Part shown: positions 18,037 to 18,795 of the stretch, in pieces
How the letters are laid out: the number at the start of each line of letters is the position of its first letter
How positions within the stretch are numbered: the first letter of the stretch is position 1
Virus record (IMG/VR): IMGVR_UViG_2526164634_000026
DNA from: a virus
Taxonomy: Duplodnaviria; Heunggongvirae; Uroviricota; Caudoviricetes
Strand: one strand, 5' to 3'
DNA: 30,934 nt
Position numbers and translations under genes: made by a program
Notes under the pieces: generated by a model
What the model was told of the DNA's origin: nothing
The model's input: only the letters and a program-made list of their open reading frames with translations
The model's database searches: none

Positions 18037-18795
18037 ATGAGTTGTAAGCCAATGTTATCATCTTGTATTGGGGTGGTTATGAAGGATGGTGCGCTGCTCA
18101 GGAGTTCTTCACTTTTTATTGCCTACATGGGATGCCTTGGATGGGGGAGTGCTTATTTCTATGGATGGGGTACTTCTTTTTACTACGGCTTCCCATGGTG
18201 GATTGTAGGTGCAGGTGTTGATGATGTTGCCAGAAGTTTATTTTTTGCAGTTATCGTCATTGCTATATTTCTTATCGGTTGGGGTATTGGTGTTGTATTC
18301 TTTTTCGCAGTGAAAAGAAAACATTCTATGCAAGAGCTAAATGTATTTCGCCTTTATTTTGCTGTGGAATTATTGTTTGTGCCGGCAATTATTGAGTTTT
18401 CTATATTGAGACAGAAGATTCAGGTACCTCTTTTGCTACTGTCAGCAGCGATTGCGCTGGCGGTTACAATTTCGATAAGATCTTATGGGCGATTTTTATC
18501 GGTATCATGCTTCTATGATAAGCCATTTATAAAAAAACATTTTTTTGAGATTGTGATGATTGCTTTTGTGGCATATTTTTGGCTTTTTTCATTTCTGACA
18601 GGATATTACAAACCACAGTTTAAGAAAGAATATGAAATGATTAATTATAATGATGGTTGGTATTATGTTCTTGCTCGTTATGATAATTGTCTGGTTTTGT
18701 CTACTTCTTTCAATGCAGGTAGTAAAAGGTTTGTCATTTATCAATCAGCACAAGATAAGAATCTTCAGGTTGATATTGTAAGGACCAGAATTTAA
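18037..18795 (+). CDS. Hypothetical polytopic membrane protein (252 aa; alternative start MKDG at 18079), AT-rich, in the slot occupied by stxAB in Stx phages
   Basis: ORF track; multiple hydrophobic segments; low GC. Confidence 0.5.
   Translation: MSCKPMLSSCIGVVMKDGALLRSSSLFIAYMGCLGWGSAYFYGWGTSFYYGFPWWIVGAGVDDVARSLFFAVIVIAIFLIGWGIGVVFFFAVKRKHSMQELNVFRLYFAVELLFVPAIIEFSILRQKIQVPLLLLSAAIALAVTISIRSYGRFLSVSCFYDKPFIKKHFFEIVMIAFVAYFWLFSFLTGYYKPQFKKEYEMINYNDGWYYVLARYDNCLVLSTSFNAGSKRFVIYQSAQDKNLQVDIVRTRI

Follow-up and report, generated by a model that had tools for sequence, protein, structure and literature searches.

The stretch of DNA considered here (30,934 nucleotides from a virus of the Caudoviricetes, IMG/VR record IMGVR_UViG_2526164634_000026; the window in the following) contains the late region of a lambdoid prophage and, within it, an open reading frame (ORF) of 252 codons on the plus strand (18037-18795, present in the ORF list of the window) that codes for a membrane protein. 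We scanned the proteins of the window with Pfam, searched for tRNA genes with ARAGORN, and located promoters and terminators by a consensus scan. Together with the ORF list, these scans bear out the gene order proposed in the initial annotation, i.e. Q, a late promoter, the insert, nanS-p, and genes for an S21-type holin, an endolysin and Rz/Rz1 (Table 1), as well as its statement that the typical companions of this architecture are lacking: no Shiga toxin (stx) or other enterotoxin gene was found in the window by the ORF list or by Pfam, and ARAGORN detected no tRNA gene in the whole window. The ORF is indeed AT-rich (36% GC, whereas Q has 46% and nanS-p 56%), and its hydropathy profile reveals four strongly hydrophobic segments in addition to an aromatic/Gly-rich N-terminal helix. 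The slot had been thought to hold one membrane-protein gene; this gene is there, but it shares the slot with others. The inserted cassette would consist of a promoter, the gene of the tfpB/STM1630 family, a gene for a DUF3927 protein and a terminator, placed in a hypervariable interval that follows the Q/pR'/tR' module and precedes the nanS-p/lysis genes in a prophage of the 434 type. It is very likely that we are dealing with a mobile moron cassette, apparently equipped with its own promoter, that occupies a known hotspot and whose product, from an uncharacterised family, is predicted to reside in the inner membrane. The gene would be accessory and stand outside the lytic programme of the phage.

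The ORF is a real gene under purifying selection and no chance ORF: more than 100 homologous cluster representatives exist, and the ratio of nonsynonymous to synonymous substitution rates (dN/dS) is 0.13-0.19 against seven homologues, with saturated synonymous sites. These data also bear on the idea that the gene is decaying and non-functional, a remnant that hitch-hikes with lpxR and Q. The databases contain many truncated or partial copies, which would fit such a decay, as would the two single-nucleotide polymorphisms that disrupt the promoter of the Salmonella orthologue STM1630 in sequence type (ST) 313 (PMC6785131). However, the ORF is intact, the low dN/dS holds across alleles, the length and the motifs of the protein have been kept from Neisseria to Escherichia coli, and conservation of the sequence reaches at least 99% in 668 records, which leaves very little room for this explanation. 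The product is probably shorter than the longest ORF suggests. Whereas the longest ORF begins at 18037 and the RefSeq gene at 18052, the ATG at 18079 (MKDG...) corresponds to the start position in all of the 24 untruncated homologues that were aligned (236-238 amino acids), and it lies downstream of a GGGG Shine-Dalgarno motif (18070-18073). N-terminal extensions are present in two longer database entries of homologues. Since the homologues start at the position of 18079 and the ATG at 18037 falls inside the -10 region (TATGAG) of a conserved promoter-like element, the 252-amino acid product is probably an over-extension, and translation probably starts at 18079 to give a protein of 238 amino acids. 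Thus, of the AT-rich gene for a 252-amino acid membrane protein that had been described, the gene and its composition are confirmed but the length of the product is probably not.

The promoter-like element was recognized when we aligned the 160 nucleotides that precede seven members of the family in unrelated contexts: the window, the Citrobacter rodentium chromosome, Salmonella STM1630, an Stx2-type prophage, a prophage allele located directly after Q, a plasmid of enterotoxigenic E. coli (ETEC) carrying the heat-labile enterotoxin (LT) genes, and an iroBC island. The -35 sequence TTGAC is kept in five of the seven regions, with TTGAT in Citrobacter, GTGAC in Salmonella and an invariant TGA core, and the 18-nucleotide spacer ends in TGn in five of them as well. 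The ETEC plasmid is homologous to the window from 18008 onwards, a point four bases ahead of the -35 region. In the iro island, the homology already begins at 17914, and therefore a remnant of tR' is still carried there. The gene appears, from these alignments, to carry its own promoter. The consensus scan called another, weak site at 18032-18061; from either site, transcripts would start downstream of the ATG at 18037, and with a start at about 18047-18049, as expected for the conserved element, only the 238-amino acid product could be encoded. In a lysogen, the gene would accordingly be transcribed from its own sigma-70 promoter, with a start near 18047-18049, and the 238-amino acid protein would be made. 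After induction, passive transcription from pR' by the Q-antiterminated polymerase would be added, as in the case of stx1, because the lysis genes are located downstream on the same strand; the Q-modified polymerase would have to pass the tR'-like terminator. By its position, the site that overlaps the end of Q can be taken as the lambdoid-type late promoter. A promoter of its own in addition to the late promoter is also known for stx1. Expression of the gene from the late promoter only is not supported: The conserved promoter-like element moves with the gene, and for the Salmonella orthologue STM1630 a transcription start site and a -10 box of its own have been described (PMC6785131).

The gene had been proposed to be novel, and this is not the case. 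The region from 13030 to 22451 of the window shares 99.6% DNA identity with wild phage 434 (OL657226.1), and the protein is 100% identical to CPT_434_68, a "putative membrane protein" of that phage, and to the "hypothetical protein" WP_001302581.1 of RefSeq, which is encoded e.g. in O26:H11 11368 and O157:H7 Xuzhou21; moreover, it belongs to a named family (PF27470, "STM1630 family protein"). The cassette (18037-19290) is found with at least 80% coverage in 682 of 5,426 complete E. coli genomes (about 12.6%), and in 668 records the identity is at least 99%. The carriers are mostly Shiga toxin-producing and enterohaemorrhagic E. coli (STEC/EHEC) of the serotypes O157:H7, O26, O103, O111, and O145. 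In O157:H7, the block of lpxR, ylcG, Q, the gene, and the DUF3927 gene is directly followed by the holin gene, and nanS-p is missing. Among 50,697 phage records searched by tblastn, only three encode the protein, one of phage 434 and two of 2B8; none of the sequenced Stx phages in this collection does so, and in none of the records do stx and the gene occur together. Phage 434B has DLP12 sequence in place of a stretch of about 5.5 kb with Q, the late promoter and the lysis region, and it still forms (clear) plaques (PMC9119081). The replaced region, as marked in the annotation of phage 434, covers CPT_434_68, and the gene is therefore dispensable for lytic growth. It had also been considered that the gene might act in lysis timing, as a holin/antiholin paralogue or as a regulator of the pinholin that is made exclusively late from pR', and a membrane-protein gene in the late transcript upstream of an S21-type holin gene is what one would expect in this case. 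But the protein has no similarity to any holin family in Pfam or PHROGs, the gene comes with a conserved promoter-like element of its own, and Stx1 phages with nearly identical nanS-p and holin genes do without it. Most relatives are encoded on chromosomes or plasmids that carry no lysis genes at the loci inspected, and this location outside of phages argues against a lysis gene. With the plaques of 434B in addition, we reject a holin/antiholin role, and the chance of any function in lysis timing is close to nil.

How does the gene relate to the toxin genes of the Stx phages? In the Stx1a phages, H-19B and YYZ-2008, the sequence is about 96% identical to the window from the start of nanS-p (about 19325-19345) through the holin gene, and stx1A-stx1B are located directly upstream of this shared flank. 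The gene is absent from the Stx1a phages with these 96% identical nanS-p and holin genes, and also from phage JLK-2012. In the latter, the same interval between Q/tRNA genes and nanS-p is occupied by three tRNA genes and the genes for TciA, a TerB-domain protein, and for the DUF3927 protein TciB, and the homology to the window resumes at 19221, i.e. at the terminator. JLK-2012 and related O55/O157 prophages thus have the DUF3927 gene in common with the window, whereas the upstream partner is the soluble TciA there and the polytopic TfpB-family protein here. The DUF3927 protein can be rejected as an obligatory partner, as its gene does not accompany the TfpB homologues elsewhere. An allele with 68% identity (P0019) is located in a late region of the Stx2 type with the order Q, a 65-amino acid ORF, a methylase gene, tRNA-Met and tRNA-Lys, TfpB, LpxR and PmrD (both on the minus strand), nanS-p, DUF1378, DUF826, and holin. 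Its left flank (the 65-amino acid ORF, the methylase gene and tRNA-Met) is 92% identical to the Stx2a phage Stx2_95, and the nanS-p flank is about 71% identical. In the Stx2 phage, stx2AB are bordered by the landmarks that also border the TfpB block at this locus; however, the junctions are not identical since the TfpB-LpxR-PmrD block is situated just downstream of a short sequence that follows stx2B. Another allele (P0046, 56% identity) directly follows a different Q gene of the PF06323 family. In qualitative terms, the proposed toxin slot is therefore real: the same variable interval holds stx in Stx phages, and these have flanks in common with the window. Like stx1AB and stx2AB, the gene resides between Q/pR'/tR' (with or without a methylase gene and tRNA genes) and nanS-p on the same strand, and the same Q-dependent late transcription is thus to be expected. 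The products have nothing in common, a secreted AB5 toxin on one side and a membrane protein on the other, with no relationship in sequence or fold. These sequence comparisons identify the interval from Q to nanS-p as a hotspot of alternative cassettes, in which the TfpB family is a recurrent occupant.

By the definition of Hendrix and Juhala, a moron has its own promoter and terminator and a deviant base composition, is present in one phage and absent from another between otherwise adjacent genes, and is dispensable. Here, the gene has 36% GC between flanks of 46-56%, it is present or absent between related phages, and the literature on 434B attests its dispensability; there is a promoter-like element that is conserved in seven contexts, albeit with a non-canonical -10 region, and a terminator (19225-19243). 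Well-known morons of lambdoid phages are bor and lom in lambda, the porin gene lc/nmpC between Q and S in PA-2/DLP12, gp15 in HK97, and SieA/SieB in P22. The cassette resembles these in that an accessory gene of deviant composition, with a putative promoter and a terminator, is placed between conserved modules and is dispensable for lytic growth, and its product would likewise act on the envelope; similarity in sequence or structure to these proteins was not detected with Pfam, PHROGs, PADLOC or Foldseek. The morons of phages 21 and 434 differ from those of lambda (PMC9119081).

What kind of protein does the cassette encode? The identical database protein (P0001) and all of the more than 100 homologues carry the precomputed PF27470 "TfpB" assignment, and a locus with 99.4% identity is named "STM1630 family protein" by the Prokaryotic Genome Annotation Pipeline. 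The protein also matches PHROG 1521 (E = 2e-154); the PHROG families matched are of "unknown function". Scans of the protein against a local Pfam version that predates PF27470 and against NCBIfam gave no matches. PF27470 is a small orphan family that moves as a single-gene unit along with the promoter-like element. Among 1.84 billion proteins, it accounts for 72 clusters at 50% identity. Its members are confined to host-associated bacteria of the Enterobacterales, Pasteurellaceae, and Neisseriaceae, and all members seen carried the annotation "hypothetical". Family members have about 236-250 amino acids and a common architecture, with the motif AYxYGWGxxxYYGxPWW in the N-terminal part, a membrane core of several helices, and a beta domain (YYxL...LIL) at the C-terminus. 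An AlphaFold2 model based on a 65-sequence alignment that spans three subfamilies (predicted local distance difference test score, pLDDT, 80.8; predicted template modelling score 0.74; the pLDDT was 60.9 with close homologues only) has helices at positions 4-36, 47-79, 84-111, 116-137, and 149-181, followed by a five-stranded C-terminal domain (184-235). The best-conserved segment, AYxYGWGxSxYYGxPWW, is rich in aromatic residues and glycine and forms the outer end of helix 1. Y26, Y28, and F167 are the only invariant positions in the 65-sequence alignment. No polar residue is conserved in all of the sequences, and to judge from this the protein probably acts by binding and not as an enzyme. 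Foldseek found no match at E <= 0.001 in BFVD or PDB, with only weak local matches to SH3-like and MscS-like structures. The name TfpB invites the idea of an accessory protein for type IV pili or pseudopili that modulates the handling of pilins or pseudopilins in the inner membrane: it is attached to every homologue, and the family occurs in piliated mucosal Neisseriaceae and Pasteurellaceae. But no pilin or pilus-assembly genes adjoin the gene at the loci inspected, and we consider such a role improbable. The name presumably goes back to the tfpB ORF of the pilin inversion region of Moraxella bovis; the origin of the PF27470 name was not found in the literature, where only unrelated uses of "TfpB" came up, and sequences from Moraxella were not recovered.

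At the loci inspected, most relatives reside outside of phages and away from lysis genes, and no neighbouring gene is conserved across the family. In Salmonella, STM1630 (P0075) adjoins sseJ (locus L006, 4349-6717), and the copy of C. rodentium is divergently oriented to lpxR at a distance of 178 bp (L007, 4863-6717). The right flank with the genes labelled ADH, MCP, LysR, and HGLS is common to the two species whereas the left neighbour is sseJ in one and lpxR in the other, suggesting an old chromosomal locus with a remodelled left side. A gene for a protein with 59% identity (P0044) is present on ETEC plasmids (L037-L040, 2987-5714), divergent from the LT genes eltA/eltB at a distance of about 870 bp and a few kb from the gene for the enterotoxin STb, between insertion sequence elements. 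Other alleles are located beside iroBC and a bor/iss remnant (P0045) and on Rep3 plasmid-like contigs (P0090), and a second PF27470 subfamily is chromosomal in Klebsiella. In the Pasteurellaceae, the family gene forms a single-gene islet between housekeeping genes: in Haemophilus ducreyi it is flanked by rpoH and mqo, in Mannheimia it follows dnaK and a P-II gene, and in Aggregatibacter actinomycetemcomitans an ABC transporter gene. Some of these genomes (Mannheimia, Aggregatibacter) harbour two or three diverged paralogues, each again as a single-gene islet.

The neighbourhood of lpxR deserves attention. This gene is found near a TfpB-family gene in three arrangements, i.e. in the window (lpxR on the minus strand, ylcG-Q, then tfpB on the plus strand), as the divergent pair in C. 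rodentium, and in the Stx2-type prophage (tfpB on the plus strand, lpxR and pmrD on the minus strand; L041-L043, 5001-7504). The lpxR and tfpB genes of the latter two loci have diverged to a similar extent, with about 72-74% nucleotide identity to the window copies in both cases. Moreover, lpxR of EHEC belongs to the Ler/LEE modulon, LEE being the locus of enterocyte effacement (PMC9263587), STM1630 is listed with virulence-regulated genes and reported to be induced in macrophages (PMC2639726, PMC6785131), and other alleles are located beside sseJ, eltAB/STb, and iroBC. All this would suit a virulence-regulated host-interaction or envelope-remodelling factor that takes part in or modulates the remodelling of lipid A (the deacylase LpxR, the connector PmrD), for instance by controlling the access of LpxR to its substrate or by acting in outer-membrane lipid homeostasis during infection. 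On the other hand, most members have no lpxR in the vicinity, as in Salmonella, on the ETEC plasmids, in the iro island, at the allele after Q, and in the Pasteurellaceae, and a deletion of STM1630 was without effect on intramacrophage replication (PMC6785131). The adjacency to lpxR may thus reflect a functional linkage, or it may simply result from AT-rich morons travelling together in one hotspot. We regard this role, the strongest of the rival explanations, as unlikely but worth keeping in mind.

The relative STM1630 is from Salmonella Typhimurium. It has 46% identity and the same length of 238 amino acids, the AY.YGWG...PWW motif and the C-terminal domain, and it is likewise an AT-rich single-gene unit; in contrast to the gene studied here, it is a fixed chromosomal gene beside sseJ and is not phage-borne. 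STM1630 was picked from RNA-seq data of intramacrophage bacteria, and of the two deletions tested only that of STM2475 reduced intramacrophage replication (PMC6785131). The gene is listed with co-regulated virulence genes of the type controlled by Salmonella pathogenicity island 2 (SPI-2)/PhoP, such as pagD, pagK, ugtL, pqaA, and lpxO (PMC2639726). In one screen, the STM1630 deletion was scored as hypermotile (PMC4219756), and in a follow-up study it was first suggested that some such effects could be polar, and the deletion was then re-made (PMC4534456). STM1630 hence provides the family with a name but not with a mechanism.

It is tempting to speculate that the cassette protects the lysogen at the inner membrane from macromolecules that arrive from outside, by superinfection exclusion or by an immunity of the colicin type. 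This proposal is based on the logic of prophage morons, the patchy distribution of the family with multiple paralogues, the lack of a conserved partner and of catalytic residues, and on the PHROG of the neighbouring DUF3927 gene, which is annotated for "inhibition of cell division or resistance to colicin". The protein would bind a conserved component of the envelope at the periplasmic face of the inner membrane in a non-catalytic manner. Several points weigh against this proposal and its premises. First, a search of PADLOC-DB 2.0 with the protein and the DUF3927 protein gave no family at E <= 1; this lowers the case for a known defence protein but not that for an exclusion factor. Second, STM1630 behaves like a core gene, at a locus shared with C. 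rodentium and co-regulated with SPI-2/PhoP-type genes, which is atypical for phage defence and fits better to a role in the interaction with the host. Third, the topology, with the N-terminus in, the C-terminus out and the small, SH3-like C-terminal beta domain probably in the periplasm, is a prediction from the positive-inside rule and the model, with which hydropathy and loop charges agree. Fourth, the -10 sequence TATGAG is weak and non-canonical and was missed by the consensus promoter scan, and the late read-through from pR' is something that we infer from the architecture of the region. As to colicins, the protein had no Pfam match to the immunity families for pore-forming colicins, and no bacteriocin or colicin gene adjoins a family member at any locus examined, the LT genes of ETEC being enterotoxin genes. 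The protective function is therefore a guess, and one that we would expect to fail more readily than to hold. As a whole, the explanation that combines a moron cassette with a protective role at the inner membrane seems to us evenly poised between right and wrong.

A broader idea, and a still more tentative one than the protective function, is that the TfpB/STM1630 proteins constitute a so far unrecognised class of envelope-acting factors of lysogenic conversion that is conserved from Neisseria and the Pasteurellaceae to EHEC and may serve either as exclusion or immunity proteins or as partners of an LpxR/PmrD module. As exclusion or immunity proteins of the inner membrane, they would block the entry of phage DNA or of colicins by binding to a conserved machine that faces the periplasm. 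Either of these envelope-acting roles would explain why the family recurs beside the stx slot, eltAB, sseJ, iroBC, and lpxR. If the protein acts in exclusion or immunity, the range of phages that can enter EHEC lysogens, Stx phages included, would be influenced by it; if it is a partner of LpxR in envelope remodelling, it would be a new component of a known immune-evasion pathway.

The gene, its family and its position had already been catalogued, and the findings will hardly surprise a phage specialist. What has been added here is the probable correction of the start codon, the conserved promoter-like element that moves with the gene, the finding that TfpB-family cassettes are recurrent alternatives to stx, tciAB and similar genes in the interval between Q and nanS-p, and the recurrent proximity of the family to the virulence loci eltAB, sseJ, iroBC, and lpxR/pmrD. 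About one eighth of the complete E. coli genomes, among them those of the main EHEC lineages seen, carry the gene in an interval that otherwise holds the Shiga toxin genes. The family is widespread in EHEC and an unstudied candidate for simple genetics.

Table 1. Features of the late region in the window, with the cassette between the tR'-like terminator and nanS-p.
Feature	Coordinates	Strand	Basis and remarks
lpxR, lipid A 3'-O-deacylase family; neighbouring moron	15745..16704	-	Pfam PF09982, E = 6.8e-40; RefSeq and phage 434 annotation
ylcG-like small ORF	17044..17163	+	RefSeq and phage 434 annotation mapped to the window
Late antiterminator Q, phage-82 type	17178..17867	+	Pfam PF06323, E = 1.7e-91
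pR'-like late promoter	17851..17879	+	Consensus scan; TTGCAA, 17-nucleotide spacer, TATACT; overlaps the end of Q
tR'-like intrinsic terminator	17913..17942	+	Scan; 9-bp stem (17913-17934) followed by T run; annotated terminator in phage 434
Promoter-like element of the gene	18012..18041	+	-35 TTGACG (18012-18017); 18-nucleotide spacer ending in TGt; -10 TATGAG (18036-18041)
Probable true coding sequence of the gene	18079..18795	+	238 amino acids; predicted inner-membrane protein, PF27470 "TfpB"/"STM1630" family
DUF3927/TciB-like 52-amino acid membrane protein, second gene of the cassette	18881..19039	+	Pfam PF13064, E = 3.4e-14; PHROG 1470
62-codon ORF, doubtful	19096..19284	+	ORF list; "putative membrane protein" in phage 434 annotation
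Strong intrinsic terminator closing the cassette	19225..19251	+	Scan; 8-bp stem (19225-19243) with 7 GC pairs, T run
nanS-p/yjhS-type esterase, right border of the slot	19338..21188	+	Pfam (DUF1737, SASA, DUF6645)
S21-type class II (pin)holin	21635..21841	+	Pfam PF04971, E = 2.8e-32; phage 434 annotation
Endolysin of the signal-arrest-release (SAR) type	21841..22338	+	Pfam PF00959, E = 1.7e-45; phage 434 annotation; Gly/Ala-rich N-terminus
Rz (i-spanin)	22323..22772	+	Pfam PF03245; phage 434 annotation
Embedded Rz1-type (o-spanin) ORF	22504-22719	+	ORF list; inside Rz

Some of the neighbouring features call for a comment. The lpxR gene is located between a truncated fragment of a lambda-type Q gene (about 15528-15599) and ylcG-Q, and the complete Q gene shares 90% DNA identity with the Q gene of phage 82. 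The 62-codon ORF had no match in Pfam, and it is doubtful because the terminator that closes the cassette lies inside, near the 3' end of the ORF. At this site, RefSeq has instead a frameshifted pseudogene on the minus strand (19120-19360).

The window shares with phage 434 the succession of lpxR, ylcG, a Q gene similar to that of phage 82, a terminator, CPT_434_68, TciB, the SASA esterase, the pinholin, the SAR endolysin, and the spanins. Downstream of Rz, however, phage 434 carries a gene for a Bor/Iss-like lipoprotein where the window has a gene of the Rha family, and the window thus represents a 434-like prophage of the O26/EHEC type rather than phage 434 itself. This gene for a Rha-family regulator is located at 22922-23539, as in O26:H11 11368. 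The 99.6% identity with phage 434, which ends at 22451, picks up again at 23547.

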